This document shows, one piece after another, positions 2,687 to 31,900 of a stretch of DNA of 37,519 nucleotides (positions are counted from its first letter, which is position 1; each line of letters opens with the position of its first letter). Under the pieces are notes generated by a model. The model searched no databases. It was given only the letters and a program-made list of their open reading frames with translations, and was not told the DNA's origin. This DNA is from Cyanophora paradoxa CCMP329 (Eukaryota; Plantae; Glaucophyta): assembly GCA_004431415.1 (NCBI GenBank), contig QPMI01000403.1:1-37519 (forward strand). Reading direction: 5' to 3'. Position numbers and translations under genes: made by a program.

Positions 2687-2692
2687 TCAGCG
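2687..2692 (+). repeat. Left target-site duplication TCAGCG
   Basis: TCAGCG immediately precedes the left TIR and recurs immediately after the right TIR; 6-bp TSDs are typical of Polinton RVE integrases. Confidence 0.9.
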
Positions 2693-2765
2693 ACACATAT
2701 GAATATTCATATTTTAATCCCTCGGCGTTCCGCCTCAGGATTAAAATATGAATATTCATATGTGT
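2693..2765. other. Left terminal hairpin palindrome (28-bp perfect stem, 17-nt GC-rich loop)
   Basis: ACACATATGAATATTCATATTTTAATCC (2693-2720) pairs with GGATTAAAATATGAATATTCATATGTGT (2738-2765); loop CTCGGCGTTCCGCCTCA contains a GGCG-TTC-CGCC mini-stem. Confidence 0.92.
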
Positions 2766-3515
2766 GATTCGATGTTATATCAATAAAATCGATTAATTTA
2801 TTTGAATTTTCATATGAATTTTCATATTTTTATATGCATTTTCAATTTATTTAATCGATGTTATATCGATAAACTCGATTAATCGATATTGTATCTTAAT
2901 TGTAGTTAATCGGAATTATATCAATAACTTCGATTGATCTTAATTGAATCCTAAATGAATTTAATCGGAATTATATCAATAAATTCGATTAAATCATGTT
3001 CTTTCCGATTAAATCAATTAAATATTTAACTTTGTTACCATAAGTGGTCTAAGTTGACTCACTTTCATAAACATTTTGAACTCTTAGTCTCCTTGAATTT
3101 CTTAAGATGACTCAACTTAGTCAACTTAGTCAACTTTGTTACCATAATCAATCAGGGTGGACTCACTTTTAGATCAACTTTGAAATTTCAAGCAAAAATC
3201 AACTTTGATTTCAAAAGTGGATCTTCTAAGTGGACTCAAAATGTTCACTTTGTGATACATGTTTGCTATAATCCTTACTGTTTATGGTCAGGGTTGACTA
3301 AGTGGGGGGAGTTGACACATTTTTTGAAATCCTTTTTAGAAAACTTTTGGTCCCAAATATTTCCTGTGAAATTTGAGTCAACTCAACCCACTTAGTCAAC
3401 CCTTGCATTGAATTCGTAACAAAATCCATATACTATTACTACTTTTACGATTAATATGAGTCAACCTTGAGTCCACTTTAATATAAATATTATATAATAG
3501 GGGGAATCAAGGGGA
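2693..3515 (+). repeat. Left terminal inverted repeat (~820 bp)
   Basis: 2693-~3065 is the near-perfect reverse complement of ~28568-28941; ~3349-3515 matches ~28388-28554 with a few mismatches; ~3066-3348 has no counterpart on the right. Confidence 0.92.
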
Positions 3516-3711: not shown

Positions 3712-4110
3712 TTAAAACGGGAATCTATCATGTTTATGTCTCTCAGTCTTCTCAAATGTGAGGAAATTCATTGTTTTATCGATCTCATCTGCTACTGATT
3801 GTGTTTTATGCTGAGCTTCTTTACCACAACTGAATATATCAATTGCTAACATGCCTTCATTGGAATAACAATGAGCTGTACAATGGCTTTCATCTAATAG
3901 CAGAACCAAAGCAAAACCAGGAGGTGATAGTTTGCCATCAAATATCTCACAGTGTTTATGAACAATCCTAATGCCTTGTCTTAATACTGCTTGTTCAAGG
4001 GTTCCCATAATCCAATTACCTAGGAAGCTTACATGCTCATGTCCTGTTGCAATAGCTGATTTAGCCTTGTAATCAAGCATAACATGAAAGCCTCTGTATT
4101 TAGTCTCCAT
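3712..4110 (-). CDS. speD: S-adenosylmethionine decarboxylase proenzyme (prokaryotic class 1B, SpeD/SpeH-like)
   Basis: 132 aa; G-x-H-V-M-L-D N-terminus, SPPG, LLDESHCTAH with the E-S-H autocleavage/pyruvoyl site, and DIFSCG. Confidence 0.88.
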   Translation of the reverse strand: METKYRGFHVMLDYKAKSAIATGHEHVSFLGNWIMGTLEQAVLRQGIRIVHKHCEIFDGKLSPPGFALVLLLDESHCTAHCYSNEGMLAIDIFSCGKEAQHKTQSVADEIDKTMNFLTFEKTERHKHDRFPF

Positions 4111-6165: not shown

Positions 6166-9100
6166 TTATGCTACCATCTTTCCTGTTGCAATATAACTCA
6201 TTTGATAGTGGAAAAGTCCAATGCTTTCATTAAATGCAGAATTTGCCGAAATTGTTGCATGAATAGTAAATGTTGTTGTTGTGGAACTTGTGACACCATA
6301 TACCAATACATATGAACCACCATTATACCCTTGTTTAAGATTGAGAACCACTTCTGGGGCTGCCGCAAATGCTTTTGGGAATGTGACAACCTGTGGAAAT
6401 CCCCAATGACCTGGACCTGTGATTGTTAAAGATTTTGAGAAACTCCCTGTTTGAATATACTGGTCTTTATTGACCCGTTGTTCTGAAACAAGTTTTGCAA
6501 TCTTTGTATTATCTGTTTCATCCATTGCATAATATGCTCTTGCGTAAGCATTTCCCCGACATAATAACGTTTTATCGTAAATATTTGCGGAATTGTGGAA
6601 AAACCATTGTTCTAAATAAAGAGGTGCATTCGGTTGGTAAATTTGACCGGATCCCACATACATGGTATTGTTGGCTGTAATTGTGTTACCTGTGATCGTA
6701 TTGGCTACAAACGGGTCTAAGGTTGGGAAATCTGTGATCTCCGATTTTGTGTGAGTATGGGCAAAATCTGTTATATCGGTCTTTGAATGACTGTGTGCGC
6801 CAACTGTGTTAGTAGCTGTTGGTTTTCCATAGATATTATCCCAATGGAGATAACCGCTATTTCCTGACGAAGCTGGGTTTTTGCTCCAACCAATAATACC
6901 AAGTAAGTATATTCTTCCTAAAACACCTTGAACACCAATTTTGTGAACATCTCGCAATTTACAGCAACATATAGCCTGAATGTATTTAAGTTGTATGATT
7001 GTGCATATGCATTTACTCGCATTGTGGTTTGAAAACCTTCATTTATATTAAACCCTTTAATGTCAAAATATCGACAGTTGAAGTGCGCTATATAAAAAAT
7101 GTAGCATGTTTTCATTCCTGTTGGAATATCCCAATACATGTAGCTATTACATACTAAATCATTTTGAGCTGCTGTGTATGCTCCCGTGTAGTAACTTATA
7201 TATGATTCATTTGTCCAATCAGCGGATTTCAAAAAATAATCGCCAAGAACACTTATAGCATCAAAGTCAGTAGGAGTAGAGAATGTTGGTTTATTAATTA
7301 AATCATCATAATTTCCACTTGTTGCAACAGTAGCAAATGTTGGTTTGTCTGTGATCTCCGCCCATAAATGAGAGTGGGCGAAATTTGTTATTTGATCTCT
7401 TGTGTGAGTATGGGCGAAATCTGAAATCTCATCTTTTGTGTGAAGATGTGCAAATCGGGTATCTGTAATCGTGAATGTGTGTGGTCAAAATCTGTTATTT
7501 GTGATTTTGTGTGAGTGTGTATGGGCATGTGCAAGTTGCTAAGAGTTAATCTGTCTTTTCCTACAATATTAAGAGTTTCCCGAGTTAAGATTGGTTGAGT
7601 ATTTGGGAAGCCATACATTTGTTGAATATAATACCTCACATCACGTTTTTCATCATTTGTCAATGCTCTGTTGAATACTATAATTTCAGCAATACTACCT
7701 CCAACAATTTGTCCAAATCCAAAAAGTTTACTATGGAATCAGGTAAATAGTTAGTCCCTGTAACAGTTTGGATATCTACACCATTCAAACCTACCGAATA
7801 AGAATCAGAAGTGATTGTTTGGTCTATGTAATACCATTTATTGATCAAAGAGGGAACTGTGATAGAAGGGGTTGGTTGTTGGACTCCCTCTATTGCAAAA
7901 CTTGTCATTCCAATTATTGTATTCGACTTAACACCAAACTGAACACTTCTGTTTGATAAATCTGTCTTCCATATTCGTAAATGATGATCAACAACAGAGG
8001 ATGTTTGGTGGTATTTACCTATTACAAAGTATGTGAGTCCTGATGACCAATCAATTGTTACATTTGGATAGGAAAATGCGGACATACTGGTTCCGGAAGG
8101 AGTTGTTATAGTGAATTGGTTGTTGATTGCTGCATTTGATGTAAAATACGAACTGGTTCCCGAACCCACGTTAATTGATGGAATCAAAGAATTTGGGACT
8201 CTATTAAAAAGATTGGAAGTGGCTGCCGATTCACCATGAACACCTGATGCTTTCCATGCAAAAAGACAATTCGGAATTTGTGAAGCTGGGTCACTGCTTG
8301 CTGTAACTCTATAATACGTTTCACTGAAAGATTCTAAATAGCTATTGGTTCCCATTTTAATCTTTCCACCCACAGTAAGGTTGCTTGTCACCACCAAGTT
8401 GCTGGCGATGGTTCCACCTTTGAGAGGGAGGTAATTTGATAGTGCTAAGTTAAGTTCAGGTTCAGTCACATATACATCAAGTTCTGGTTTTGTCACGTAG
8501 TTTTCGAGGATATTTGCAAGTTCTGTATCATCTACATAATTTTTGCTTTCAAGGTAATCATCTGTTACAACACCCGAAAGGGTTTCATTGTGTAAGTTTT
8601 TCGCCGCCATTCTCTGATTGACTTCTAAGGCGCCACCTGTTGTTGTTTTGATCCACGCCATCTCACATTTCCCGAAATCATCTTTTGGTTGTCCTGCAAG
8701 AGGTGCGTAATTGAATTTGGAGCGACTAAATATTATTTTCGGTCTTGATCCATCGGTTGCGCTTACATCTGTAACATTCACTTGTAAGATGGCGTCTTTA
8801 TCATCATAACTCACAGGATCTAATGGAAGTGGTGGTAAACCTGCTGTTAATGGGATATCATCATTATAATAACTTGTCAAAAAGATTCCTGGTTTGGTGT
8901 CTATAACCCCCACCCCACCTGCTGAAACCATTTGTATCCTCGAAGGTTGTTTAATATATAGTTCGCCATCCATAGTGGTTCCCGCATCTATTCCTTTGCG
9001 ATTCAGGTAATATTCACTTAATTGTAATCTTTCAGCGATGGTATCACTTTGGTAGAAACTGACCCCATAAAATCCATCACCATTTACTAAATCGCCTGTT

Positions 9101-12100
9101 GATGCAAAACGTGGTTTTTCATCTATTTCACTCCATGGGTGCCTGTGGTTAGAGTTTGTAATTTCGGAATAATCATGAGTGTGTGAATCCGGAGGAAAGG
9201 TTAACGGAGGATTTGTGATATGCTCCCATAAATGAGTGTGTGCAAAATCTGTGATCTGATCTTTGGTGTGAGTATGGGCAAAGTCTGTGATCTGATCTTT
9301 GGTGTGAGTATGGGCAAAATCTGTGATCTGATCTTTGGTGTGAGTATGGGCGAAATCTGTGATTTGCCCTTTGGTGTGTGTGTGGTTTTGTATCCAACCT
9401 TGAACCACATTCGACGTTGGATGATGTGGTAAATTTGCATTACTTGTTACTGTGAGATAATCAATTACTGTTTCGGGTGATGTGATCTTTAAACCTCTGT
9501 AAATGGTCAGAGGTTGAGTAATTGGGAATCCATACATTTGTTGAATGTAATACCTTACTTGTTGCCTTTCTGCTGTGGTTAATGCTCTGTTGAAAACAAT
9601 AACTTCACTAACACTACCGCTAAAAAGGGTTCCGATTCTAAAAGTAGTCACTGTTGAATCAGGTAAGTAATTTACTCCTGTAACAGTCCCAATATCAACA
9701 CCATTTAATCCAACTGAATAGCTGTCTGATGTAAGTGTTTGATCTGCATAATACCATTTATTAATCAGAGAAGGAATTGTAAAAGCCATTTGAGTCTGAT
9801 TGACCCCATTAATGATGAAATCAGTTGTCCCTAATGTGGTGGAGAATCTCGCTCCATATCTAATAATTCTCGAAGGAGTAACTGTCTTTGAAATATCTAT
9901 GTGAGCATGTGATAAACTGTTTGTGGGATGGTATCTACCCACATAGAAATATGTCAAACCTTGCGACCAATCTATTATTCTACCATTGACTATTGAAGAT
10001 GCTGTGACTGAGGTATTCAAAGCGCATGTTAAACTCATCTGATTATTTGTAGATATATTGGAAGCATAAAAGGGGTTGCCTGTGGCGCTCACCGTGAGCG
10101 ATGGGATCGAACTTGATACTCTATTATAAAGAAGTGTAGAACCTGCACTTTGACCTTCTGTTCCTGATGCTTTCCATGCAAAAATGCAATTGGGAATATT
10201 TGAAGCTGGATCATTGCTGGCTGTTATTTGGTAGTAATCTTTGTTCAACTCTTGCAATGTAGTAAACGCATATGAACCAACTGTAAGAATTCCATTCACT
10301 TTTAGGTTACTGGTCTCTATATTGCTACTGTAAATATTACTATTTACTGTAAGGTTTCCTGTGATTGTCCCACCAACAAGTGGAAGATACTTAGATAATT
10401 CATCAGCAAGTTCAGATTTTGTTACATAATCTCCAAGCATAGCAAGAGTTACGAAATTTACAAGTATTACAGCAGTAAGGTAATCCTCTGTGACCACTCT
10501 CGAAATATTTTCATTGTGTATGTTTTTTGCTGCCATCCTCTGATTGGCTTCCAGAACCCCACCATAATCTGTTTTAATCCATGCAAGCTCTGCCCTTCCA
10601 TAATTATCATTTGCAGTTCCCACTATGGGAATGTAGGAATACTTATCTCGACTGAAAACTATCATTGGTCTTGAGCCATCTAAACTGCTTACATCTGCTA
10701 CATGAACCTGTATAGCAGAGTTGTAATTTTGGTAGGTTGCTGGGTCTGTTGGGACTCTGAATGTATCTGTGGGAATGTCAGCCTCCATGTAGCTTGACAC
10801 AAAGATATTTGGTATGGTTGCTCCTGGTGGTGGTGGGGTTTCAAAAGAGCCTGGTAATGTCCTAATATGAAGTGGTCCTCTCATAGCTGAATTTGCAAGT
10901 GTCCCATTCACATGTACATAGTGTTCATTCAAAAAGATTCTTTCTGGGACATTACAAGTCTGATAAAGAGAAACCCCCAAGTTATCAAGAGGCTCAACTT
11001 TTGCGAATTCTGGTTGGTCATTGATCTCATCCCAGGTGTGTTCATGGTTGCTTGCTGCAAACTTATCTGGAATCCCATCAATATCACCCCAATCATGCCT
11101 GTGGTCTTCTGGTGGGTATTTCTGTGGTTTGCCTAAGATCTCATCCCAGTCATGATTGTGATCCTCTGGGGGATACTTTGCAGGTTTATTATTAATTTGT
11201 TCATAATCAGGAAAGAACTCCCAGATCTCAGGTCGAAATCCATCTGGTAGTAATTCCTCATGGGGTTCATAAGGTTGCTCATAATCAACAGCTGGTGGAT
11301 CATGCCCATCTGGCAAATACTCCTCATCAGGTTCATAGTTCTGCTCATACTCAAACTCTTGGGGATCTAAGCCATCTGGTAGTATCTCCTCCTCATTGGG
11401 GTCAAACTGATCATATTCATATTCTTGTGGGTCAAAACCATCTGGTAAATATTCTTCCTCATCTGGAACGAATTGATATTCATCAAGCTCTAATATATCG
11501 ACTTCAGGAGGTAAATACTGCTCATCTATTTGCTTTCTGGGTTCAATTATAGGTTTATTGCGAACTTGCTCCCAACTAACAATATGCTGCCCAAAAGCAA
11601 CTGTCTCATCTGCTGTGTACTCTCTGCCTGGTTGCTTTTTCGGTGTTAAATCCGGTGGATCCCATGGAAGAGGGAAGGGAACTGGGACAGGTCCATAATA
11701 CTCAAAGATCTCTCTTATGGTCTTCTCACTAACAAGCTTCTCTCCATTTGCATACACATTGCTGCCATGGATATTTCGCCATTGCCTGGTTCGAATTCCA
11801 AGGTCTTTCACATTGCTATACAAAGGCAAAAGGTGCCTATCCATTTCAACAAGATCAGGATGTAAATGGATTGCTACTGGCTGACTGGGGCTACTGTTGA
11901 TTGTAATTGATGGCTTTTTTTGATGGACATCTTTTGGAGTAAAGAACCCAAAAGGCTCATTCCTTGCAAAGTCATATGTAATATCCTTGGGGTAGACATC
12001 ATTTGTGTAGGAGACCTGATTTGTGTTGGCAATGGGACCCACTTGCAATACTTGGGGGACCTCAGCTTTTGCAGTGCTGCCCTCATTGTAAATTCGCAAA

Positions 12101-12471
12101 CCTGTGTTCTGTTTGCCCTGCTCATCTTGAACATTGAAAATCAATCGACCACTATCGAACCTAGAAGGTATATCTGGGTGAGTGCCACTGGTTTTGAGTT
12201 TCCTAGGTCTCCTTCTTGTTGCTTTGATCTCTGCTACTTGGTTGGCTTTCACATTACCCAAACTAAAAGCAACACTGACATCCTCTTTATCTGGATCGGT
12301 TTGATTCACAGATAAAGCATGCTCCCTTGATTGAGTCTTGGATGAATTATCGGAGCTGTGGTCGATTGAAACTGAACCCTTTACTTTAATGTTATCAAAG
12401 TTCACATGCTTGGTGCTGCTTGCATTATCATCTTGAATTGTTTCTAGATTTGGTGGGTAATTGAAGCTCAT
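6166..12471 (-). CDS. Giant fibre/spike protein (~2100 aa reconstructed from ORF pieces 7678-12471, 7388-7663, 6918-7232 and 6166-6957)
   Basis: Phage-fibre-type HTHTKDQITDFA and HxHxWxEIxxKP repeats, YLPLxGGT motifs, ATVATSGNYDDLINKP, two LamG/ConA-like modules (EVIVFNRALT), C-terminal H-type-lectin/gp53-like domain (VTFPKAFAAAPEVV); three single-base restorations (~7723, ~7453, ~6985) join the pieces. Confidence 0.8.
9232..9385 (-). repeat. 36-bp tandem coding repeat (HTHTKDQITDFA, about 4 copies) in the fibre gene
   Basis: Near-identical units such as aaatctgtgatctgatctttggtgtgagtatgggc; related units near 7380-7530 and 6730-6800. Confidence 0.85.
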
Positions 12472-12514
12472 GGCTTTTACTATATGGATTTATAAAATTC
12501 CTGATAAGTAAAAG

Positions 12515-14070
12515 ATGCCTCTCAAAGTAGTTCTCAGTTTGTCAGGGGGAGGTGCAAGGGCATTATCATAACCAGGCTGCTAAAAGAAATCGAAAATCGA
12601 ACTGGCAGGAGAATAATCGATCTTGTGGATCTTGTGAGTGGAACTTCCACTGGTGGGATCATTGCAATAGGTTTGAATATAAGGCATCCTGATAAACCAG
12701 GTGAACCTAAACTGACAGCAAACGATTTACACAATATTTACCTAACTCAACTGCCCTTGATTTTCGCAAATCCTCGAAATATAATCGAAAATGCCCTTTT
12801 TAATACAAAGTATGATGTGGGACCCTTGGAGACTGCAATCAATTCAGTTACTGGTGAATCACTAATACAGGATTCCCTAAAGGACATTGTGATCACATCC
12901 TTTGATACTCAGAATATGAAACCAATATTTATCACAAATGACAACAATTACAACTTTATGCCTTGTAAGATTGCTGCTAGGGCTACTTCTGCTGCTCCTA
13001 CATATTTCTCTCCTGTAAGCATTGTTGATTTCAATCGGGGAGTATATGTCTGTCTAATTGATGGTGCCATTTCGGGAAACAATAATCCCAGTGTGTGTGG
13101 TTACAGCCATGCAAAGAAAATTTACAGTGATGATGATGATATTATAGTAATAAGTATATCTTGTGGAGAGGTGGACCCACATTTAGAGTCTGATTATGTG
13201 GGTTATGCTTATGAGACTGTCAACAGCTGGGGCATTCTCTCATGGATTGCCTCAACAGATGGAAGCCCATTGATTAACATGCTCATGGCTGCAAGTGAGC
13301 TTTCTGCCCTTGATAAGATGGAGGAGTTGTTACCCTACAACTATGATCAGGATTATGGGAGATACTATAGGCTATCAGTCCCACTTCCAAATCATATAGT
13401 AAGCTCCCTGGATGACACTTCTAAAATCCCAGACATGCTTGCATTCACTGAAACATACATTGCAGCAAACAATGATATGATTAATAAGCTTTGCAGCATT
13501 CTAGTAGCAAACTATGAATTAAAGAACCCTTCAAAGGCTTACATATCATCCACTCTCACTACATCACCTCCTTTGGATGCAAATTGGTATCAGCTTGCAG
13601 ATGATGCCTTCACTGCCTCATCCTCTGTGACAGGTAAAGAGCCTTTCATGGCTAGACCTTCAGCATTTGGCTGGGAAGCTGGAGCCTATGCTCCTGAGCA
13701 GATATGGGAAACCCCCACTGAATACCTTCAAGTTGCTTTCCCATATACTTTCGAACTCTCCTCTGTTATTGCCTATGGTTCAGGGGACACCAATGCTTTT
13801 ATTAAGACTTTCAATGTGGCAACATCCACTGATGGGATCAACTGGTCTTTTATTCGATCAGATGGGCAGAACAAAATATATGTCTGTGAGAACATTAACA
13901 ATGCTCACAACTCAGGTGATGTTGCTTTATTGAGTGGATTTCCTCTCAGCATCAAGGATGCTTTTTACATAGGTTTTTCTCTCAGAATCAAGTATATTCG
14001 CATTTATCCCCTTGTGTATGTGAATGCTCCCACAATGAGAGTGGACTTTACAGGTGCCTTTATTCGATAA
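12515..14070 (+). CDS. Patatin-like phospholipase fused to a C-terminal F5/8 type C (discoidin) domain (~518 aa; one frameshift at ~12558-12560)
   Basis: Reconstructed N-terminus MPLKVVLSLSGGGARG (oxyanion motif), GTSTG nucleophile elbow, RATSAAPTYF, DGA; C-terminal FTASSS...EYLQVAF...STDGINW...KYIRIYP...MRVDFTG discoidin pattern. Confidence 0.88.
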
Positions 14071-16085: not shown

Positions 16086-17452
16086 ATGGATATCACTTCC
16101 ACTCTTCAAAGACTTTCGCTGAAAGAAGCCCTAACAACCCCAGAGGAGGCGAAAGCCTTTTTCCTGGATAACTCCCTTATGCTTGGACTCGAATCCAAGT
16201 CTAAGCCAGTTCTAGTTGTTGTGAATCCAGCAATACTTTTGAGAATAATGTTGGAAATCGCATTTCCTTCAAGCTACCTCGCTACAATTTCTGTGGAAAA
16301 CTCGAACTTGCTTTCGACCTACCAGAAATCACTTTTGCTGGTGAAGATCTAGTTCGCAATGGATACACTCGCCCAGTTGGTGCTTTAGTTCAGCGACTTG
16401 AAATTACCTATGGATCTTACACCTACCACATCCCTTCTGATTTCCTTGCTCATTTCCCCCTGGTCTATTATTCGGAGGATCAACTAGCTAAAAAGAAACG
16501 CTCAATGGGCATGGTTCATGGTATCCCTGCTCATGGAACCAACCGACTTGGTGGCTCATTTTTCGTTGAAATCCCAGTGCCTTGGCTAAATCACTATCTT
16601 CCCCTTGGTGCTTTATCTGGTGAAATGGTTGTTACTGTTTGGTTTAAGGATGCTGGAAAGGGTTATGTTGAAACTTCCTATGGTGGTCGCTCTCTCCCTG
16701 TTGTTGGTGGGACAGCTGCTGATAAGACAGAAGATGATGGTCTTGGTGATACTGCTAATGCTACACTTGCCCATGTTGGTCAAAACATCACCACTTTCAG
16801 TCTTGGTGCAACAACCCCTGCTATTTCAATTACTTCTCCTCGCCTTTACATGCATGCTATTAATGTTTCTGATGAGCTTTTCGCTACTGTAATTGAAAAA
16901 GTAAAGACAACTGGCATGGCTATTCCCTCCCTTGATATTGGATTTGTAGATGCCATTGCTTTTGCTGCCAAGGGCAATGCCCAGCCCAATCGAATTAACC
17001 TCTCTCAAATCTCAGGTCTTGTCTATGCTCTGCTTGTTTCAGTTCGTGATTATGAGACTGTTGACAAATCCAATGGCTCCCACAGTGTTCTTAAGACCTA
17101 TGCCAACTCCAAAGAGATAACATTCACTGTGGAAATAAATGGTCAGCGACTTTTTGCCACTGAGCCAATTTCCCTACTCAAAGGTGCTGAGCTAATTGCT
17201 GATGCATTCAAATGCTCTAACATGGATAAGGTTGCTGATCGCTATGTCCTTTCGGGTATGAGTTTCTGCCTTAATGGAGAAAATGCGATTCGAAATATCG
17301 CTCAAAGTGGCTTTGTCGACCTGACAAATTCCTCATCTTCATTCCTCACACTCTACATGCCCACAGATAAGACAATCAATGTTCAAGTTCGCGCTTTAAT
17401 GCATAGTTTCCTCATTATAGACGGTTCAGGTGTTCGTAGAATCAATTTATAG
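16086..17452 (+). CDS. Double jelly-roll major capsid protein (~455 aa; one frameshift near 16215-16230)
   Basis: Joining frames gives NRISFKLPRY...ALVQRLEITYG...FFVEIPVPW...YLPLGAL..EMVVTVWF...VEINGQRLF...GFVDLTN...VRALMHSFLIIDG, the usual DJR motif order; lies between penton and ATPase. Confidence 0.8.
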
Positions 17453-17511: not shown

Positions 17512-18243
17512 ATGCAAGATTTAGAAGAGTTTAATGTTTCTGAAATGATTAAAGGTGTTTTCAGAGCCATTTTTATAGGCAAAAGTTGTACGGGAAAAAG
17601 CGAATGTGTAAAGTATTGGTTAAAGCAATTACATGATGCCAAAGTTATTGATGTTGTCCTAGTTGTGAGTGGGACCAGCTTTAATCATTTCTGGAGAGAG
17701 GTTGCAACAGTAGAACTTGGTAAATGGGATGCTGGTTACATTTCAAAGCTTTTGGATGAAAGGCAGGAGAAAATCGAAAAAGGTGAACCTGTGAACCACA
17801 TGTGTGTTGTTTTAGATGATTTAATTGATAATGAGATAATTGATTTAACAAGAGACAAGGTGGTGTCATCTCTGTACAGTAGGGGCAGACATTCGAAAAT
17901 ATCCATTATCTGCATTACACAGAAACTCAGAAAAGTCTCTTCCACTATTCGAGTTAATTCTGATTATGCTGTTTTCCTGAGTGCTGCTAATCGCAAAGAA
18001 CTTGAAGCCATAGAGGAAGAATACAATATAATGCGAAACAAGGAGGACTTTTACAAAATGTTTGAAGAATATGTCCACTCCTATCAGTATATCGTTTGGT
18101 CCTCTGCTGGCTACTCAGTTAAATACTTTGTAGATAAAGCTGAGCTTGTCAAAGACTTCCCATTTCCTCGCTTCCACAGAAAGCCAAAAAAGAAAGAAGA
18201 TGAACTGAAACCACCAGAGAAAGAGGAAGCCCCAAAGAAGTGA
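17512..18243 (+). CDS. A32/FtsK-HerA-like genome packaging ATPase
   Basis: Walker A GKSCTGKS, Walker B VVLDD, A32 signature RGRHSKISIICITQ, IRVNSDY. Confidence 0.93.
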   Translation: MQDLEEFNVSEMIKGVFRAIFIGKSCTGKSECVKYWLKQLHDAKVIDVVLVVSGTSFNHFWREVATVELGKWDAGYISKLLDERQEKIEKGEPVNHMCVVLDDLIDNEIIDLTRDKVVSSLYSRGRHSKISIICITQKLRKVSSTIRVNSDYAVFLSAANRKELEAIEEEYNIMRNKEDFYKMFEEYVHSYQYIVWSSAGYSVKYFVDKAELVKDFPFPRFHRKPKKKEDELKPPEKEEAPKK

Positions 18244-20276: not shown

Positions 20277-22871
20277 ATGAACAAAATCGAGAAATTCGCC
20301 ACCCCTGTTGAAAATGCTACATTCCTTAGTACTCTCATTGGTGATCGCAACAAGGTCACCCATGTATTTGATTCTGCCGAAGATGCCCTTGAAGCCATTG
20401 ATAATAGCAAGGTTAAGACCTGGGCTGAATGCATTCAACCTGAGCAAGTGACCAGAGTTTACCTGGACCTGGATAAATTCGCTGATTTGAAGGAGAACAT
20501 TGCTGATAACTATGCTGAGGCGGAAACTGTTGTAAGAGAGATGAGAGATAAGCTATGGAAGCGATCTGGTACCACTTCTATTAACGATATTGCTGTTGCA
20601 GTTCGCCATAGAAGGGTTTATTTGATTAAGGAGGATGTCACCAAGTTCAAGATTTCAGCCCACTTTATTATTAAATCGCTTGCATGCAAACATGAAGATA
20701 TCCCCAAGCTTTTCAAAGCGATGGGATTGGTGAAAAATGAGGATTATGACAGTGGAGTTTACAGCTCCACACAGAACCTAATCTGCCTCAATTGCTGCAA
20801 AGGTGAGACTCTGGATGCTCAAAATAAGTCGAAAAAAGATGTTGATAAAAACGTTTGCTTTAAGAAATTCGTTGACTGTGACAAAGTGTTAATGCGAAAT
20901 GAGGACTTCTTTGTATCTTACTTCTCAGCTACTACTAAACTTGTGGATGAATCGAATATTTCTGCATTCGCAAATTATAGCCCTGAGCCAAAACCAGTTA
21001 AAAAGGAGCCAAAAAGTGATAAAGTGAAGACTGAGAAGGTAGAAGCTGAAAAAGACACTGAACCCGAAAATCCTGTTACTTTCGAACTGCTACAAAGTGT
21101 TATAATGGGTCTGAATGGTGAGAGAGCTAATGAGTATAAAACTTGGATTGATGTAGGACTGGTCATCATCAATGTTGGGGAAGACAACAAGTTCACCCCT
21201 AAAATGCAAGCTGAACTCTTCCACCAATTCTCAGAACAGAGTGACAAGTATGATTATGATGAATGCCAGGAGAAGTTTACACAGCTTCGCAGAAGCAAGA
21301 AGAAGGCTGAGCCTGGCAAAGTGTTGACCTTCAAATCCTTGGTTTATTGGTTGAGCAAAGATAACAATGAGCTTTTCAAGGAACTCTTCCCCAAAAAGTA
21401 TGCATTCCTACCAGAGGACACAGATGAAATCGATTACAAGACTGCAAGTATCCCTCCTTTGGCTGAACATTACAATGTGCATAAGAGGTATTTCAATGCT
21501 CGAATGCATCATGTTGAAAATGTTGGTTGTGTGATGCTCTGGGATGAACAACTACTTTGCTGGATGCCCAAAGATATTGGGAAGCTCTCTACAAAGCATT
21601 TCCCCCACTTGATGCATAAGGTGATTGTGAATGAGGGGACAGATAATGAGAAAGAGAAATGGGAGCAATCATTTAGGAAATGGATTGTGGATCCAACAGC
21701 CACAAGATCAACTTACATGGATTTCCTTCCCCCTCCTGCTACTCTCAGTGCAAAATGCAAGTCTGTATTTAATCTCTATCCAGGAATGAAGGTCGACCAT
21801 CAGCAATTCGAAAATGCTCCAGAGGATGTAACTGCTGAGATGATTAAGCCTTTCCTAGATCACTTGTTCTTAATGTCTGGTGAGGATCAAAATACCTATG
21901 AATATCTGTTGAAATGGTTTGCCCACATGCTGCAAAAGCCTGGGGAACTCAATGGAGTATCCTTAATCTTCATTGGTGAGCAGGGAACTGGTAAAAATGT
22001 GTTGGTTGATACTTTCCAAAAGAAGATACTTGGAGATGCCCTAAGTTATGCAACTGGAAAGCCAAAAGAGGATCTGTTTGGTCGATTTGCCCACAATAGA
22101 GAGGATAAGATCTTGATTGTTGTGAATGAAGCCTCAGGCAAGGACACATTCGAAAATAATGATATGCTCAAAGATCTCATAACTTCTGATAAGATTGTAA
22201 TTGAACACAAAGGGATAGATTCATACACAAAAAGCAACTTTGCCAGGATTATATTCACCAGCAATAACAACATTCCAGTGAAAATTGAAGCTGGAGATAG
22301 GCGATTTGTGGTTGTTGAAGTTAGTAAGAAATTCGCAAAGGATAGGTCATACTTCCTTCCACTTGTAAAATGGCTAAATGATCACTGCAATATTCGAAAC
22401 ATTGCCCACTATTTGAGAACCAAAGTTGACTGTGAGGATGTGAACTGGATTGCTGATAGACCCCTTACAAATAAATACTATTTAGCCCAACAGGTGTGCG
22501 CTCCAATCATTCTTATGTTCACTAAGTGGCTTGTGGATCGAGGCTTAATTTCCGAGAATAAATGCAAGTCTGGTAGCCTTGTGGAAACCTGGAAGTGGTT
22601 CCAGGAGTTTATTACCAGCAATAAATATAAAAACGATTATAATAGTCGCCGATATTATACTGAAATGAGAAGTGTTACATATATCCAAGTGAAAACTACA
22701 AATGGCAAACAATACTATCATTTCCTATTCCCACAAGTATTTGAGGAATTCAGAAAGATGAAGCTTGTAGATGATGAGACTATTGAGGAAGAAGCTAATC
22801 CAAGGATGAAACAGGCCCTACCTGCTGCTGATCCTGATGCATCAGATTATGATTCTGATGTTGAAGTTTAG
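20277..22871 (+). CDS. Primase-helicase: AEP primase + PriCT-2 + SF3 (D5-like) helicase
   Basis: AEP motifs VYLDLD, SAHFII and DSGVY; PriCT-2 YKTWIDVG..FHQFSEQSDKYD; Walker A GEQGTGKN, Walker B VVNEA, motif C FTSNN, DRRF arginine finger. Confidence 0.92.
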   Translation: MNKIEKFATPVENATFLSTLIGDRNKVTHVFDSAEDALEAIDNSKVKTWAECIQPEQVTRVYLDLDKFADLKENIADNYAEAETVVREMRDKLWKRSGTTSINDIAVAVRHRRVYLIKEDVTKFKISAHFIIKSLACKHEDIPKLFKAMGLVKNEDYDSGVYSSTQNLICLNCCKGETLDAQNKSKKDVDKNVCFKKFVDCDKVLMRNEDFFVSYFSATTKLVDESNISAFANYSPEPKPVKKEPKSDKVKTEKVEAEKDTEPENPVTFELLQSVIMGLNGERANEYKTWIDVGLVIINVGEDNKFTPKMQAELFHQFSEQSDKYDYDECQEKFTQLRRSKKKAEPGKVLTFKSLVYWLSKDNNELFKELFPKKYAFLPEDTDEIDYKTASIPPLAEHYNVHKRYFNARMHHVENVGCVMLWDEQLLCWMPKDIGKLSTKHFPHLMHKVIVNEGTDNEKEKWEQSFRKWIVDPTATRSTYMDFLPPPATLSAKCKSVFNLYPGMKVDHQQFENAPEDVTAEMIKPFLDHLFLMSGEDQNTYEYLLKWFAHMLQKPGELNGVSLIFIGEQGTGKNVLVDTFQKKILGDALSYATGKPKEDLFGRFAHNREDKILIVVNEASGKDTFENNDMLKDLITSDKIVIEHKGIDSYTKSNFARIIFTSNNNIPVKIEAGDRRFVVVEVSKKFAKDRSYFLPLVKWLNDHCNIRNIAHYLRTKVDCEDVNWIADRPLTNKYYLAQQVCAPIILMFTKWLVDRGLISENKCKSGSLVETWKWFQEFITSNKYKNDYNSRRYYTEMRSVTYIQVKTTNGKQYYHFLFPQVFEEFRKMKLVDDETIEEEANPRMKQALPAADPDASDYDSDVEV

Positions 22872-23063
22872 GTTTACTCAAAAGTGGACTCATGGTTGAC
22901 TCAAATTTATCATAAAAGACCCAAACAGTCTTTTATTTACGGTTTATTTATCGATTAGGTTGACTAAGTGGGGGGAGTTGACTCATTTTTTCACAGATTC
23001 TAAAAAAGGACTCTGCCCTAAAAAGAAATAAAAAGTGCCTCAACTCCACCCACTAAGTCAACC
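22872..23063. promoter_or_regulatory. Internal copy of the TIR motif cassette (inverted GGTTGACTAAGTGGG...CCCACTAAGTCAACC pair plus GACTCA motifs); candidate origin or regulatory site
   Basis: 22958-22990 nearly matches 3292-3324; 23041-23063 resembles 3379-3401; AAGTGGACTCA.GGTTGACTCA at ~22882-22903 matches the right TIR at ~28425-28446. Confidence 0.7.
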
Positions 23064-23525: not shown

Positions 23526-26500
23526 ATGCCCCGAATTACCAACAAACTCATAAGGGAGAAGAAATGGGAACTCATGGGATTGCTGGGAACACTATATGCA
23601 GCCCATGAAATAACAGAGGATGAATATGACCGGGAAATAGATTTAATTGCAAGGGGCAGACCCACTTTAAGCAGATTAACCAGAAAAGCAAATAACCTAT
23701 ATGATAAAATTGAAACCTTGGATGAACTGGATAGGCTTAGGCAAATAGAACCAGAGGCAGAAGATGGAACAGCCATGAATGAATTATATCGCTGGCTCAC
23801 ATACAGAGCCAGAAGGGAAGTTGTTGTAGATGTGATTGAATTCCTGGATAGAATTGCTACATCCCTTCCAAATCGATTAAAGCAGGGTTTAGATCAATTC
23901 AGGGCAATCAAGGTTCGCTTGTCTTTTATCTGCAAGTTCGTTAAAGTGAGCAATCCACAGGTTTGGATATCGAAATACATTTACAGTGATTACTTTGTAT
24001 TAACCAGGTCGAGAAATATTCGAACTGAGCTGAATAAAGCAGCCCAAATGTGTCAGGAGCAGATGAATGTGGTTGATAGCTATCGCTTAGAAAGAATTGA
24101 AATACTCAGAGTGGCTATTATGAGTTATGCTCCAACTGGTGGATGCTTTCTACAAACCCCAGAGTGGATTGCTAGGAAGAGAGCCACAGTGAATATTCGA
24201 AATATAGATGATTCCTGCTTCGAAAATGCGATTTTAGCCTCGATTTACAGAAAATCTATTAACTCCAATAAGAGGAATGAGCTTTCACAATATCGCAAAT
24301 GGAAATACTCAGCAATCGCTTATAATCCGCTGGCTCTCAATTTCGACAATATCCCATTCCCTGTTGCCTGTGATGCTGAAATAATTGATAAATTCGAGGC
24401 TCAAAATGCAGGCATTAGCATTAATATATTCGGAATCGATGGAGAGGTTGTTTATCCCTGCATCAATCCAGTAACCCAGGCAGAAAGCATAAGGTTAATC
24501 TCATGCTGATATTTGATGATGAAGGGAATGGTCACTATATTACAATCATGTCCCTTTCAAGGCTATTGAAAGTAAACCATGAAACATACAATGATCAGAA
24601 GTTACACTACTGTGATACATGCTTATCTCGATTCAGGTCTGAGGCTAAACTCACTGCTCATGTGGACTCAAACAGATGCATTGATTGGAGACTCTCAAAG
24701 GGAATCACCCCTAAACCTGAGACCACCATAGAGTTTGGACTGAAAAACCTCAGGAAAACTGTGTGGCTTCCTGTTGTGGTTTACTGCAAGATTGAACATA
24801 GAAGCATCCCCATTGATGCATCGAAATCCAAGAGGGAAGTCTCAGCAGTGAACCTTAGAGTAGTCACTGGGGAAGATGTTCAAGATTTTCGATTTGAGGG
24901 TCAGGATCCAATGGGAGGTCTCTTTGAATGCTTGGAGTCCAAAGCAAGAGAACTAATCGATTTCCTGTTTACCAATATTCCCATGAATGAACTCACAGAT
25001 GAGCAGAAAGCTGTATATAGGGCTACCAAACACTGTTACCTTTGCAGTGAGAGGTTCACCAAGGAGAACTTTAAATGCAGGGATCATGATCATCACACAG
25101 GTAATTATATTGCTCCTGCATGCAGAAACTGCAATCTCCATAGGAGAATCTCAAAGCAAACCAAAGTTGCAGTTGTTGTTGACCAAATGGATGACTGTGG
25201 GACATTCATTTTCAGAAAAATAGCAGGTATGGGTGATAAAAAGCGAATCGAAATCCTTTCGAAAAACTTTGATCAATACCTTTCATTGCAATGGGGTCTT
25301 TACAAGTTCATTGATGCAAGCAATTTTATGGACTTTGGAGCTGCTGATGTAGATGAGTTAATGAACAAATTCCAAGCCTTCAGAAGGCTTTCACACTCAG
25401 TATATGGACTTGACCCAGTTCATTATGTATCTGCACCTGGGTTATCTTGGGATGCTATGCTTAGGACCACCGAGGCAAAAATAGAGCTTATAAGTGATGT
25501 AGAGCAATACGAATTTGTTGAGAGGGGAATCAGGGGTGGCTTTGCAACAATGCCTTGTAGGTATGCTGAGGCTGATGGTGAGAACTCCCACATTATGCTG
25601 TTTGATGCTAACAACTTGTATGGCTACTGTTTGAGTCAGCCAATTCCAGTTGGTGATTTTAGATGGGAGACCGAATTCAACCCACAAGATAACAGATCCA
25701 GTTTCCTGGAAGTTGATCTGGATTACCCAATTAGGCTGTTTCTAGATCACAGTGATTTCCCTCTAATTATTAACAAGAAAATAGTAGAATATGCCGAATT
25801 ATCACAATATCAAAAAAGCCTATTGGATCTCTCAGGAGAAGAGCTTGATAAAACCCCTAAGCTAACTGCAACCTTTGGTTCTGTGACCAACTATGTAGTT
25901 TCTGAGCCTCTTCTACAATACATGTTAGCTAAAGGTGTGAAACTAAAGAAGGTTCACAGGGTCCTATCATTTACTGTGGCTCCTGTAATGAAACCCTACA
26001 TTGAGCTGAATACTGATATGAGAAGGAAAGCAGTGAATAAATTCGAGGCTGATTTCTATAAGCTCATGAATAATTCAATCTATGGGAAATGCATTGAATC
26101 ATGTAGAGGTCGATCTGTGGTTAAGATTGCCAACACTGAGAAGCTATTTATGAAATATGCAGCTTCCCCATTGGTGAAATCAACAAGTCCCATAAGTGAA
26201 AGGGCAGTTGCCTTTGAGTTTTACACAAAGCATGTGAAGCTAGATAAGCCTGTTGCAATTGGGGCTTATGTTTTGGATGCAGCCAAACTGCATAACTACA
26301 AGTTCTTCTATGATACTGTAAGGTCCCAGTGGTCAAAAGCAAAGTTACTATTCCATGATACTGATTCCTTTTGTCTATATATTGAATCTAAAACCCTTCA
26401 AAAGGACCTAGAGAATATATCCTTTAATCTGGACTTAGGAGGACCTAACAGAATGACCCCAGGTAAATACAAAAATGAGATGCCAGGTTCTGCTATATTG

Positions 26501-26770
26501 GAGTATGTAGGTCTGAGAGCCAAAGTTTACTGTTTCAGAACAGCTGAGATTGAGAGAAGTAAGCTATCTGGGACTTCCACTGAGGAACTCCAATTCAATG
26601 ATTTTAAGCAGTGTTTATTTGCAGGTATCAGCAAGACTGTGACTGCAAAGCAGAAAAGAAGGGCAGATCACACAATAATAGACACTGTGAGTAGAAGGGT
26701 TGCCCTAAACTGCTTTGATGCAAAGAGATACATCTTACCAGATGGTATTAATTCTGTTCCTTTTAATTAA
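23526..26770 (+). CDS. polB: Polinton-type (protein-primed family) DNA polymerase B polyprotein (~1081 aa; one frameshift at ~24456-24458)
   Basis: Adding one C joins 23526-24509 and 24503-26770 (VYPLHQS..HKVNLML..GHYITIMSLSRL); VNIRNIDDSCF (vOTU-like), CxxC..RDHDHHTG..CRNCNL (endonuclease VII-like), motif A DANNLYG, motif B KLMNNSIYGK, motif C DTDS, GLRAKVY. Confidence 0.93.
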
Positions 26771-26773
26771 GAG

Positions 26774-28159
26774 ATGCCAGCAACTGGAAGAATAGTTAGG
26801 AGAACCACTGAGCAACTGCAAGGAAACCTACTGCCTATCACAGTTCCCAAGGAGGAAAAAGGGGAATCTCGAATTGTTAAAAAGTCTGAGATGAAAGAGC
26901 TTGTCCCAGTAGAGATCCCAGTTGCTATTGCAGTGAAAGAAACTAGCAAGATTGCCAAGAGATTCTATGATGTGAGAACAGGTTACAAAGGGCTTCAAGC
27001 TATGAGGGCTGAGTTACCAGATGAATCCTATAAGCAGTTGCAAGAGTTCTATAAAAAGCAGGAAGTTGTTCAGATCAATGCACCTGCTATATCTAGGAAG
27101 AGAGATCCCATGGTTCCAATAAGGCAACCCCTTGATACCTATGTGATTGATTTGCTCTTTTTCCCAGCTTATAAGAAACAAAACAATGGCTATGATACAT
27201 TTATGACTGCAATGGAATCAACACTGAGAACTGGATATATCATACCTATAAGGGATAAATCAGCTCTCACTACATTAGCTGCATTTAAACAGCTTGAGAT
27301 GAGAGTAGCAAGACCCATAGTAAAAGTTCAATCAGATGCTGGGAGTGAATTCCAAAATCGAATATTCCAGGAGTATTTATCTAGTAAATACATAGAACAC
27401 CAAGTGAGTGGAACTGCAGACCATAGGAGCCAAGGTCGAATTGAAGCCTTTAACAAGCAGATTAAGAGACTGATCACAAACTACTGCATAGCTAATAACA
27501 CAGCTAGATTCTTTGATGTGTTGGGTGATATTGAATATAATTACAATAACACAGTTCACTCAGCTACTAAGATGAAGCCAGGTGAAACTACAGAGGAGCA
27601 TTATAGGTATATAGTGGGATTAGAAGATGAAAGATTCAAGAAATCAATAGCTTATCTTGATACCATGCAGCCTGGCATGTTTGTTAGAGTGAAAGTAGAG
27701 AAGAACCCCTTTGCTAAACAGGGTAACAATTGGTCTAGGATGGTTTACACTGTTGATAGTAGAGAAGGCTTTAAGTTTAAGCTAAGGAGTCCCACTGGAG
27801 AGATCATAGATAACAGATTTGCATTCCATGAGCTGTTGCCTGTGAATGCAGTTGAGTATCTGGAAACACCCACAGTGGATGCCTTAGAGCAAGCTAAAGA
27901 GGAAGCTAGGGTTGATGCTTCTATAAGGAGAGAGGGCATAGAAGCTGCTAATGAAGTCCCAGATAAGCCTTTGATAGAGGCTAGAAAGGAGAAGGCTGGC
28001 AAAGTTAACAGGGAACTCAAAAAGCTCACTATAGCAGGCACACAGAAACTTTCAGAAGTGAATAGCCAGAGATGGTATAATGACTTTCAGACTACTAAGG
28101 AGTCATATACAGCCCCTAAACCTCAAAGAACACTAAGAGAAAGGACCAAAACTAGCTAG
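26774..28159 (+). CDS. int: Retroviral-like (RVE) DDE integrase
   Basis: VIDLL (D), QSDAGSEF (D), QGRIEAFNKQIK (E), YNNTVHSATKMKP, SH3-like PGMFVRV...NWS; consistent with the 6-bp TSD. Confidence 0.93.
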   Translation: MPATGRIVRRTTEQLQGNLLPITVPKEEKGESRIVKKSEMKELVPVEIPVAIAVKETSKIAKRFYDVRTGYKGLQAMRAELPDESYKQLQEFYKKQEVVQINAPAISRKRDPMVPIRQPLDTYVIDLLFFPAYKKQNNGYDTFMTAMESTLRTGYIIPIRDKSALTTLAAFKQLEMRVARPIVKVQSDAGSEFQNRIFQEYLSSKYIEHQVSGTADHRSQGRIEAFNKQIKRLITNYCIANNTARFFDVLGDIEYNYNNTVHSATKMKPGETTEEHYRYIVGLEDERFKKSIAYLDTMQPGMFVRVKVEKNPFAKQGNNWSRMVYTVDSREGFKFKLRSPTGEIIDNRFAFHELLPVNAVEYLETPTVDALEQAKEEARVDASIRREGIEAANEVPDKPLIEARKEKAGKVNRELKKLTIAGTQKLSEVNSQRWYNDFQTTKESYTAPKPQRTLRERTKTS

Positions 28160-28387: not shown

Positions 28388-28941
28388 TCCCCTTCATTCC
28401 CCCTATTATTTTATATTTATATTTAAGTGGACTCAAGGTTGACTCATATTAATCGTAAAAGTAGTAAAAGTATATGGAATTTGTTACGAATTTAATGCAA
28501 GGGTTGACTAAGTGGGTTGAGTTGACTCAAATTTCACAGGAAATATTTGGGACCTGAAGGTTTATAAAAAGTGAGTCAACTTAGACCACTTATGGTAACA
28601 AAGTTAAATATTTAATTGATTTAATCGGAAAAGAACATGATTTAATCGAATTTATTGATATAATTCCGATTAAATTCATTTAGGATTCAATTAAGATCAA
28701 TCGAAGTTATTGATATAATTCCGATTAACTACAATTAAGATACAATATCGATTAATCGAGTTTATCGATATAACATCGATTAAATAAATTGAAAATGCAT
28801 ATAAAAATATGAAAATTCATATGAAAATTCAAATAAATTAATCGATTTTATTGATATAACATCGAATCACACATATGAATATTCATATTTTAATCCTGAG
28901 GCGGAACGCCGAGGGATTAAAATATGAATATTCATATGTGT
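28388..28941 (-). repeat. Right terminal inverted repeat (~555 bp)
   Basis: Reverse complement of the left TIR, lacking an internal ~280-bp segment. Confidence 0.92.
28869..28941. other. Right terminal hairpin palindrome
   Basis: Exact reverse complement of 2693-2765. Confidence 0.92.
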
Positions 28942-28947
28942 TCAGCG
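28942..28947 (+). repeat. Right target-site duplication TCAGCG
   Basis: Identical to 2687-2692 and directly abuts the element end ...CATATGTGT. Confidence 0.9.
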
Positions 28948-28999
28948 ACACGAAAAGTGGGGGTTTTTAGAGTCCTGATCGCGGAGGGTGTGTGCGTAC

Positions 29000-31900
29000 A
29001 CCCGCTCTTGGCGATGGACTTGTATTCCGCCACGAAATCGTATGTTTTTCCACTCAAAGCGTCCCAAATGAAAAGAAGGACTTTGTTAGAAGCGGACGTA
29101 TACGTAGTCCCAACGACCGGCGGAGCCGCAAGAAGCCTCGGGGGGGAGACGCCAACGTCGAGCAGCTGCGAATAGGTTTCGCAGGCTTACACATTCGCTC
29201 TTATCGCAGTTGCGCGCCACGCATGCGCAATTGCAAGCATGCGTACCTTCAGAGAGCTGTCCGTAACAGCAGCGCCTCGAATCCACTGACCGTTGAGCTT
29301 GAACTGGACGACGTCCTGCTCTGTGGGAGCGGTGATGTACCTGCACGAGCAATGTAAGGGTTACATTTGCATGCAAGAAACGAAGATAGAAAACTTGAGG
29401 TGCGAACCAGGCGGTCAAGGCGTCGTACTGACCCATCTCGAAAGTCACAGCCAACGTTTTGGTCGTCGCCGCAGCACTCAGCGTAGACGGATCGGGCGCC
29501 AGTCCCGAAGGGCATTTCGCTGTGTTCGAGAAAAGCATGCAAAGTTTACGATTAGCTGCGACGAAACCGTGCGGCCTACAGCTGCGAGTCGAAAGGCCTA
29601 ATTTATAAGGCAGTCAATGTCGCACTGAAAGCGTTTGCGCTGAAGCCTCCACCAGGGGTCTGATTGTCGCCTCCAGTGCTGCCCTGGTAGCTCGGATTCG
29701 AGACAAACACGACAACGAACTCGGCTCCTTCCGCAGCGTCGACGATGGGGAATGCGCTTGTGGTGATGGTGGGCTTGCCCACCCCACGCCAGAGAGCGGA
29801 TACGCCGCCGAGCCGCCGACGATTTTCGTTGATGTGGCAGTAATCTCGAAGACCTGCATGAGGGCGGGTAAATCGAGCAGTCGAACACGCGCATATGCGT
29901 GCACGTGCACGTGTGTGCTTGCACGTCATGATCACATGCGAATTTGAACGCACATACATCACATCGTACCACCAGCTATCTTCACCGTCAATCTCAGTCC
30001 AGCGCCAACTGAGACTGCAGCCAGAGCTTGAAAGCTGGCTCGATCGTTTGACAGTCCTACGCAAAATACTATCACAACGACTTGCAGGCAGTGGTACGTA
30101 TACCGATGTCGCACCAGGCCTGCAAGTGGCTTGCCGGGTACGGCTTGATCTTGACCTCTTCGTAGATCAAGTCGGGGCGCAGCTCCACCGAGGCAGAAGC
30201 GAACGTTTTGGTGTCCTTCGCTCCAAGAGTAGCATCTGGCGAGGCCGTCGCTGCGCGATTCGGCATGCGCTCGTTAAATGCATTGGCGTTCACGTATGAT
30301 GATGAGCTCGAGCTTACATCCGCTCTTTGCGATTGATTTGTACTCGGCCGTGAAATCGAGCTTTCCCGTATCCCCACGCGCGGCATAGCCTGCATTGTTG
30401 TCGCCGTGCTTGTGCAAGAACACGAAGAGCCTGTTCGAGGCCGTTGTGTATGTTGTCCCGACGACCGGCGGGGCCGCGAGGAGCCTCGGGGGGGAGACGC
30501 CGATGTCGAGAAGCTGCTCGAGCGGATCGGGATTGTGCATGTACAGAGATTGCGCCTGCGGCGGGCTACCTTGATGGCATTGTCATTGACGGTCGTTCCG
30601 TCGATGGCGGTCCCAGTGACCTTGAACTGGATCACGTCCTGCTCAGTGGGAGCGGTGACGTACCTGATGCGAATTTGCATGAGCGTTAAATATTTGAGGC
30701 AAACTTCAATCTAGTGCTCGAATGCTAGTTAGCTTGAGTGATTGCGATTGCGCGCGAGCACCAGCCATGATCTGCGCAGCAAAACAAAAGTCAAAAAAAT
30801 GTCTAAAATACACAAACATTACATATATAAAAAGCGGCCGTCTCGCCTCGTCGTTGTAGTTGGCCTCGTAGAAGGCGGTCATGGTTTTGGTCGTTGAAGT
30901 AGCATTCAGAGTGCTTGGTACGGCCGGAATCTGAGGGCACTTGGCTGCGCGAGTGCCGGCTCATAATCAGGCATATGCCGATATGTATAAACGCATGTGC
31001 TGTCTCGAAGTCGAACTTGAAACCGCCAATTGAAAAGGAAAGGAAACTCACGGGAAACGAACGCTCGGAAACCGCCTCCGTTTCCGTCGCTCCCTTGATT
31101 AGTATCGTCACTGTGGAAGATGACGAGAAGCTCGGCGCCGGGTTCGGCAGTGAACGGGGGAAACTTTTTCGGATTAGCGAGAGGATTCTGGTTTCCCCAG
31201 CCTGCCCCGTTTCCTGGATAGTATCCTTCAGCTTCTCCAGCAACAAGTCGGGTAGAAGTGCTTGTCATCTCAAACACCTGAGGGGTGCACACGGTGCTTA
31301 GCTATAGCAAAACCTAAAATTTGCAAAAACTTTTAGTTTTTATTGGCCATGGCAGATCAACGTTCACGCACATACATCACATCATACCATCCGTCGGCTT
31401 GGGAATCAATCTCGAGCCACTTCAACCAAAGTTTGTTTTCGCAGTCGGAAGGAATGGAAGCGGGAAGCTTGACTTGCCTAAAATCGCGTACAGCTCGTGA
31501 TTAAGAGGGCGAAAGAGTAGCCGGGCTGGCGCGTGAGTTCGCGATCGAGCACGCACCAGGCTTTCATCGTCTTCGCTGCGTAGGGCTTAATTGCAACCTC
31601 GCGACTCGAAGACGTCGCCGAAATGCTCGCGGTCGCTGTGTGGACCGAGGACGTGAAGGTGCCCGTCACGCTGGATGAAGAAGTGATGGTCGCCGAGGCA
31701 GTCGCTGCGCACGCGCACGCGCCCGACCGCAATGAGCCGTACATGTGCGCACAGGTGCAGGGACGATAGCCCGGGCAGGGCGGCGCGCACAACCAGCCTT
31801 CGCAATCGAATTGTACTCGCCACGAAACTGGTCGCCGCATCGTACTGCCAGAGAAACACAAAGAGCTTGCTGGAAGCCGCTGTGTACACCGTGTCGAGGG

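Follow-up and report, generated by a model that had tools for sequence, protein, structure and literature searches.

The gene at positions 3712–4110 on the reverse strand of the window (the whole stretch of DNA that was analysed, 37,519 nt) belongs to an integrated Polinton-like element and encodes a protein of the SpeD fold. We propose that this protein is probably a self-cleaving, pyruvoyl-dependent L-arginine decarboxylase (SpeDA) rather than a SAM decarboxylase, and that it would yield agmatine and feed the polyamine supply. Judging from the sequence, the chemistry itself, namely self-cleavage, formation of the pyruvoyl group at S75 and conversion of arginine to agmatine, very probably holds. 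While the virus replicates, the agmatine would most likely go into polyamine synthesis by enzymes of the host or helper; a role in depletion or antagonism is the bolder reading.

Reading frame, fold and selection

The reading frame codes for 132 amino acids without internal stops. Its product matched the Pfam family AdoMet_dc (PF02675; E 3.9e-11, 43.7 bits, above the cut-off of 25) and scored 44.4 bits on TIGR03330 (the SAM_DCase equivalog model), below the cut-off of 75.65. The residues E74-S75-H76, H80 and D91-IFSC-G96 are present, as the preliminary description had reported for the ESH cleavage site and the DIFSCG motif. The features of the gene are as follows.

3712–4110, reverse strand: speDA-type gene; intact class 1b SpeD-fold protein of 132 aa, by sequence most likely a pyruvoyl-dependent L-arginine decarboxylase proenzyme
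3883–3894, reverse strand: D73-E74-S75-H76, predicted self-cleavage site (between E and S, S75 becoming the pyruvoyl group), from the alignment to T. maritima S63
3859–3873, reverse strand: H80-C-Y-S-N84, catalytic His retained; Y-S-N in place of W70-P71-E72 of the SpeE-linked AdoMet decarboxylases (AdoMetDCs)
3823–3840, reverse strand: D91-I-F-S-C95-G96, catalytic Cys (equivalent to T. maritima C83), from the alignment and the accessible text of PMC10407285

S75, H80 and C95 align with S63, H68 and C83 of the T. maritima AdoMetDC, which are named as essential in the accessible part of PMC10407285. The AlphaFold model (pLDDT 88.5) had class 1b AdoMetDCs of T. maritima and A. aeolicus as its top five Foldseek matches (E 3.6e-8 to 1e-7). 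The fold, the proenzyme design and the catalytic residues are thus common to the query and to the AdoMetDCs of T. maritima (TM0655, PDB 1vr7/1tlu; Foldseek E 3.6e-8, TM 0.70), of phage S-PM2 and, going by the accessible text of PMC9992855, of HaV and YSLPV2.

Contigs of four sequencing runs gave 40 listed differences over the gene, with no indel and no new stop. Synonymous changes made up 31 of the 40, where 20% would be expected (p ∼1e-14; pN/pS ∼0.07), the variants being scored one by one and part of them deriving from more diverged sister families. All variants in the codons of E74, S75 and H76 were silent. Because of the synonymous excess and the lack of stops and indels, we concluded that the gene is under purifying selection and is maintained as a protein. 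A chance or decayed open reading frame was ruled out by the fold and by pN/pS.

Arginine or SAM as the substrate

We examined the prokaryotic relatives and their gene context. The best 80 of 392 GTDB relatives, found with patterns from the query's own alignment that favour this subfamily, were all archaeal, and those with precise titles were Poseidoniales/MGII. Their identity to the query was 38–57%. A DHS-like SpeY was located directly downstream of, or fused to, the SpeD-fold gene in 78 of these 80 loci, the remaining two ending at contig edges, and an agmatinase was located upstream in 31. SpeY uses agmatine, according to the accessible text of PMC13625781. Within the order Poseidoniales, the SpeD fold was found in 98 of 101 genomes and a spermidine synthase in none of the 101 (control positive in 10 of 14 named genomes), these genomes being incomplete.

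Two profiles were compared, one of SpeY-linked (80 sequences) and one of SpeE-linked proteins (22 sequences). The query scored 134.7 bits on the SpeY-linked profile and 43.0 on the SpeE-linked one, whereas the validated phage AdoMetDCs reversed this order (S-PM2 45 and 111, P2559S 23 and 65, phiYS40 32 and 61 bits, respectively). F49, W70, P71 and E72, which we take to have a role in SAM binding in AdoMetDCs, were each present in 22/22 SpeE-linked proteins; in the query these positions are occupied by L, Y, S and N. The W-P-E motif is not an absolute rule, because the validated AdoMetDC of phiYS40 lacks it. The Asp before E-S (D73) was present in 80/80 MGII archaeal, 14/14 viral and 156/158 library matches and in 0/22 SpeE-linked proteins, which have Ala there. 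The D-E-S-H and H-x-Y-S motifs are common to the query and its Poseidoniales homologs. SpeDA enzymes are described as devoid of a Pro conserved in AdoMetDCs (accessible part of PMC10407285). The query has Ser at His+3 and retains an upstream Pro; phiYS40 also lacks the His+3 Pro, and the Pro in Fig. 8 of PMC10407285 may be either position.

A quick tree of 121 rows was reduced to a careful tree of 57 rows, which retained 8 MGII and 9 canonical metagenome rows and omitted 64 rows, including HTVC201P with its very long branch. The phylogeny that the preliminary description had called for gave a divided answer. The best tree split the query's side from the canonical AdoMetDCs at 96/92, but constraining the query with the canonical AdoMetDCs was not rejected by the AU test (p 0.19), on a 132-column alignment in which long branches meet at the root.

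In the accessible text of Li et al. 2023 (PMC10407285), the homologs from Poseidoniales, MGII/III, Gimesia, Solirubrobacter, Nannochloropsis and Tribonema fall into a single clade, and each of them decarboxylates arginine but neither ornithine nor lysine. The same text reports that the Poseidoniales, MGII/III and Solirubrobacter genes did not complement E. coli speD, and that the efficiencies in the Poseidoniales–stramenopile clade were low (20–180 per M per s). From gene context, profile scores, residues and tree, the query probably belongs with this SpeDA clade, the placement being made by lineage and gene context (Poseidoniales with speB-speY) and not by comparison to assayed accessions. 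The class 1b fold and the S/H/C set are common to the query and the SpeDA of the Poseidoniales/Gimesia/stramenopile clade. The query differs in being virus-encoded and stand-alone, without adjoining speY or speB; the accessible text of PMC10407285 has no eukaryotic-virus member in the clade.

The Polinton-like element and other viral carriers

The element spans 2693–28941 (26.2 kb) and is bounded by TIRs and a 6-bp duplication, TCAGCG. Its main features are listed below.

2687–2692, forward strand: left target-site duplication (TSD) TCAGCG
2693–3515, no strand: left TIR; matches the right TIR over about 385 nt at 99% and 184 nt at 94%, the two blocks being separated by ∼256 additional nt; terminal 73-nt hairpin
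12508–14070, forward strand: patatin phospholipase fused to an F5/8 (discoidin) domain; stop-to-stop frame (Pfam)
16086–17452, forward strand: putative major capsid protein (MCP), two reading frames in this copy; 57% to the intact homolog P0174, whose N-terminus resembles the ORF at 16086
17512–18243, forward strand: A32-like packaging ATPase (Pfam Pox_A32, E 2.7e-12)
20277–22871, forward strand: primase-helicase (PriCT-2 and D5-like DUF5906; Pfam)
23526–26770, forward strand: pPolB polymerase region (Pfam DNA_pol_B_2, E 5.7e-13)
26774–28159, forward strand: retroviral-type (rve) integrase (Pfam rve, E 1.4e-4, under the curated cut-off)
28388–28941, no strand: right TIR
28942–28947, forward strand: right TSD TCAGCG

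The TIRs, a TSD in the 5–6 bp range and the presence of pPolB, rve and the A32 ATPase make it a Polinton-like virus (PLV) or Maverick-type element, and the assignment of the rve integrase fits the 6-bp TSD. A GIY-YIG nuclease is also encoded (Pfam). The GC content is 0.39 in the element against 0.54–0.58 in the flanks. Public sequencing runs of one organism contained many variant contigs with different flanks at the TIR end; therefore, the element is a multi-copy family. In this copy, decay or an assembly error has broken both the putative capsid gene and the polymerase region across two frames, and the decarboxylase gene is whole.

Two statements of the preliminary description on gene content were borne out. 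As no ATG-initiated ORF of at least 80 aa lies wholly between the TIR start and the gene, the decarboxylase is the first gene inside the left TIR. Spermidine synthase is absent, with none among the 20 ORFs of the element (Pfam) and no match in the window by tblastn with nine SpeE-like queries, which were positive in 29 of 51 control loci. Neither SpeY nor agmatinase was found in the element, nor were SpeE, SpeY or agmatinase found near the viral loci of the SpeDA clade. Rfam gave no match within the window.

The putative capsid protein at 16086–17452 is very divergent. It had one homolog in the large protein search and none in IMG/VR, there was no Pfam match to a capsid among the element ORFs, and hhalign to other PLV-like MCPs was not significant; the AF2 single-sequence model of its homolog P0174 had a pLDDT of 34. 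In Table S6 of PMC12220804, the MCP-POL model matches only 2 of 156 glaucophyte PLVs. From this divergence and the scarcity of MCP-POL matches, the protein may represent an unrecognised capsid family.

Three further observations concern the architecture of the element. At 22881–22991, upstream of the GIY-YIG/polymerase/integrase block, there are internal copies of TIR motifs (two matches to the inner TIR, one direct over 45 nt and one inverted over 38 nt), possibly a shared regulatory or origin motif. The region 6169–12471 is long and fibre-like, with laminin-G-like modules duplicated ∼1.9 kb apart, 36-nt AHTHTKDQITDF-type repeats and a terminal H-type lectin, and its downstream part is split into several frames. 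The element sits inside a repetitive, intron-rich host gene on the reverse strand, whose exon-like modules recur on both sides (600–2700 and 28942–32200).

Scans of IMG/VR gave 13 distinct contigs with a gene of the SpeDA clade. Five of these (L001, L006, L008, L009 and L158) are PLV-like, having an A32 ATPase and a capsid-like block, and L010 probably is; the remaining carriers are five giant-virus-like and two phage-like contigs (L162:9986–10360 and L004:870–1235). Giant viruses with the gene clade are L002, L003, L005, L007, L011 and L098–L100. Among 54 metagenome loci, the three close ones (49–52% identity) were the giant-virus contigs L098–L100, of which L098 carries an NCLDV capsid, Erv1, RNase III and a capping enzyme. 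In the careful tree the query grouped with L098–L100 and with P0001, P0002 and P0027 at 100/95, and the other PLV-like copies grouped with other giant viruses (L158 lying outside the tree). A single common origin of all PLV copies was rejected (AU p 2.5e-37). This rejection and the separate giant-virus groupings point to at least two separate PLV acquisitions from, or exchanges with, giant viruses, with no direction assigned; the gene has likely passed between the two virus groups on more than one occasion.

The domain itself has been tallied in PLVs before. In Table S6 of PMC12220804, PF02675 is counted in 138 PLVs of four host groups (66 of 156 glaucophyte, 45 of 706 Rhodomonas lacustris, 17 of 57 Cryptomonas pyrenoidifera and 10 of 177 C. 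borealis PLVs); it was counted in no PLV of the remaining 15 host groups and in none of 40 virophages. That the gene is already common in described PLVs, which the preliminary description had named as a refuting outcome, is borne out in part by these counts; the main text of PMC12220804, as accessible to a term search, does not mention PF02675. The copies in PMC12220804 carry a Pfam count labelled AdoMet_dc, without phylogeny or substrate call, and are compared here by tally and not by sequence. The gene content of the element is like that of the glaucophyte row of that table (rve, pPolB, A32, lipase and almost no MCP by the authors' HMMs), and the patatin–discoidin fusion is common to the element and to rhizarian and glaucophyte PLVs (PMC12220804, accessible text). 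On these two grounds, the organism that carries the element is probably a glaucophyte or a protist of similar kind. Term searches of the accessible texts of PMC12220804, PMC11633385, PMC10120064 and two 2026 bioRxiv PLV surveys gave no discussion of the domain in PLVs or virophages and no arginine decarboxylase call, and the supplements of PMC10120064 and of the preprints may list the gene. The word 'polinton' is absent from the supplement of PMC9992855. What is new, then, is the probable SpeDA assignment, the nearest placed relatives in giant viruses and the indication of at least two PLV acquisitions.

Proposed function and competing explanations

The proenzyme would be cleaved between E74 and S75 into chains of 74 and 58 residues, the pyruvoyl group would form at S75, and arginine would be decarboxylated to agmatine, with the invariant D73 as a candidate contact of the guanidinium group. 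The agmatine may then be handed to enzymes of the host or of a helper giant virus, giving putrescine and spermidine or homospermidine during replication. In this way the gene might enhance, cheaply and without PLP, the first step in supplying polyamines to DNA packaging and translation. The preliminary description had proposed polyamines for genome packaging by way of an AdoMetDC; the link to polyamine metabolism is supported by the SpeY- and agmatinase-linked relatives, and the route through AdoMetDC is not. Viral conversion of arginine to agmatine also occurs in chlorovirus PBCV-1, whose arginine decarboxylase, however, is ODC-derived, PLP-dependent and of another fold, and is accompanied by the downstream enzymes AIH and NCPAH (PMC9992855, accessible text). 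Pelagiphage HTVC201P has a SpeD-derived arginine decarboxylase (ADC; same source and scope), a separate emergence outside the query's clade.

We weighed two other chemistries. It is very unlikely that the protein is a true AdoMetDC giving dcSAM to the host spermidine synthase. Since a eukaryotic host can be expected to make its own spermidine synthase, the absence of this enzyme from the element proves nothing; the fold and catalytic residues are the same, and a placement with the canonical AdoMetDCs is not rejected by the AU test (p 0.19). Class 1b AdoMetDCs, together with SpeD-derived ADCs and ODCs, are also known from phages and algal giant viruses (accessible part of PMC9992855). However, the query is only ∼23% identical to class 1b AdoMetDC/SpeD, misses the TIGR03330 cut-off, scores 43 against 135 bits on the two profiles, lacks F49, W70, P71 and E72, and has no SpeE link. 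The nearest prokaryotic lineage, moreover, gave no SpeE matches and failed in speD complementation (PMC10407285, accessible text), and no SpeE was found beside any viral locus of the SpeDA clade. These results, together with the SpeY-linked relatives, speak against the AdoMetDC activity assumed in the preliminary description, and its aside that some SpeD homologs act on arginine became the main point, through context, profiles, residues, tree and PMC10407285. That the enzyme is an ornithine decarboxylase (SpeDC), or acts on another basic substrate, is very unlikely: none of the six assayed proteins from the matching clade acted on ornithine or lysine (PMC10407285, accessible text), and the query is unlike the sole SpeDC-like reference compared, HTVC201P, which scored 22 bits on both profiles. 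Such a reading would draw on the repeated substrate shifts in the SpeD fold described in the same text, and on the point that an ODC yields putrescine directly and makes a partner enzyme unnecessary.

Two other roles were considered. The preliminary description had favoured a drain of SAM that blunts methylation-based silencing of the element, and had linked it to CpG avoidance. The element is indeed CpG-poor (o/e 0.37 against 1.25–1.26 in the flanks), and at codon junctions the ratio was 0.25 across 12 genes, which suggests exposure to CpG methylation. All 12 genes are affected, with TpG at 1.38 and CpA at 1.43, and this pattern of CpG loss with TpG and CpA gain fits past methylation and deamination, or selection against CpG. 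The carriers of the gene clade, however, had a CpG o/e of 0.76–1.06 in five PLV-like contigs and of 1.34–1.43 in the nearest giant-virus carriers. As the depletion does not travel with the gene, CpG content lends no support to a SAM drain, which also requires a SAM activity that is unlikely for the query; we regard this role as extremely improbable. The alternative that the arginine decarboxylase serves as a weapon or modulator, with less arginine or more agmatine hampering a co-infecting giant virus or host translation, is unlikely. In its favour, neither the element nor the viral loci have an enzyme that would act downstream of this solitary gene, PLVs from several host groups carry it, and PLVs can cut giant-virus yield (PMC12220804, accessible text). 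However, the enzymes of the clade are slow, and the same clade is carried by giant viruses, which points to a benefit for viral replication. Equally doubtful is a wider version, in which PLVs and giant viruses would trade a small pyruvoyl arginine decarboxylase in a conflict over host arginine and polyamines, and the PLV copy, selected in a genome of ∼20 genes, would produce agmatine or take away arginine and so tilt the cell against the helper giant virus, as a metabolic form of PLV-mediated defence.

Metabolic genes are rare in small integrating DNA viruses. The element has retained such a gene in intact form under selection, and genes of its clade appear to have entered PLV-like genomes at least two times, alongside giant viruses. 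Should it encode an arginine decarboxylase, members of this clade in PLVs and giant viruses are wrongly labelled 'AdoMet_dc', and the range of SpeDA takes in eukaryotic viruses. The SAM-drain model of anti-silencing loses support, and a protein of 132 residues would offer an easily assayed handle on polyamine limitation of PLV replication.

Some minor observations were made on CpG distribution and on domain fusions. The outer TIR (2693–3004) is CpG-rich (o/e 2.97, 13 sites, many of them in ATCGAT-like repeats), the rest of the element being CpG-poor. Fusion partners of other homologs include DHS, arginase-family, PQ-loop, SET and NNMT-like domains, and the first three of these speak for the arginine decarboxylase reading. 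P0026 and P0029 have tandem double SpeDA-clade domains, with K-S-H in both domains of P0026 and no E-S-H site in the first domain of P0029. Four eukaryote-like proteins (P0034, P0038, P0060 and P0170) have a PQ-loop membrane domain fused to a SpeDA-clade domain. PQ-loop proteins include basic amino acid transporters, and these fusions suggest transport-coupled arginine decarboxylation in protists. In P0040, P0063, P0090 and P0138 the SpeDA-clade domain is joined to an NNMT/PNMT/TEMT methyltransferase, and two of them, P0040 and P0063, have a DHS-like SpeY as well; these fusions are a possible route to N-methylated polyamines. In P0053 and P0084, a SET domain is joined to the SpeDA-clade domain.
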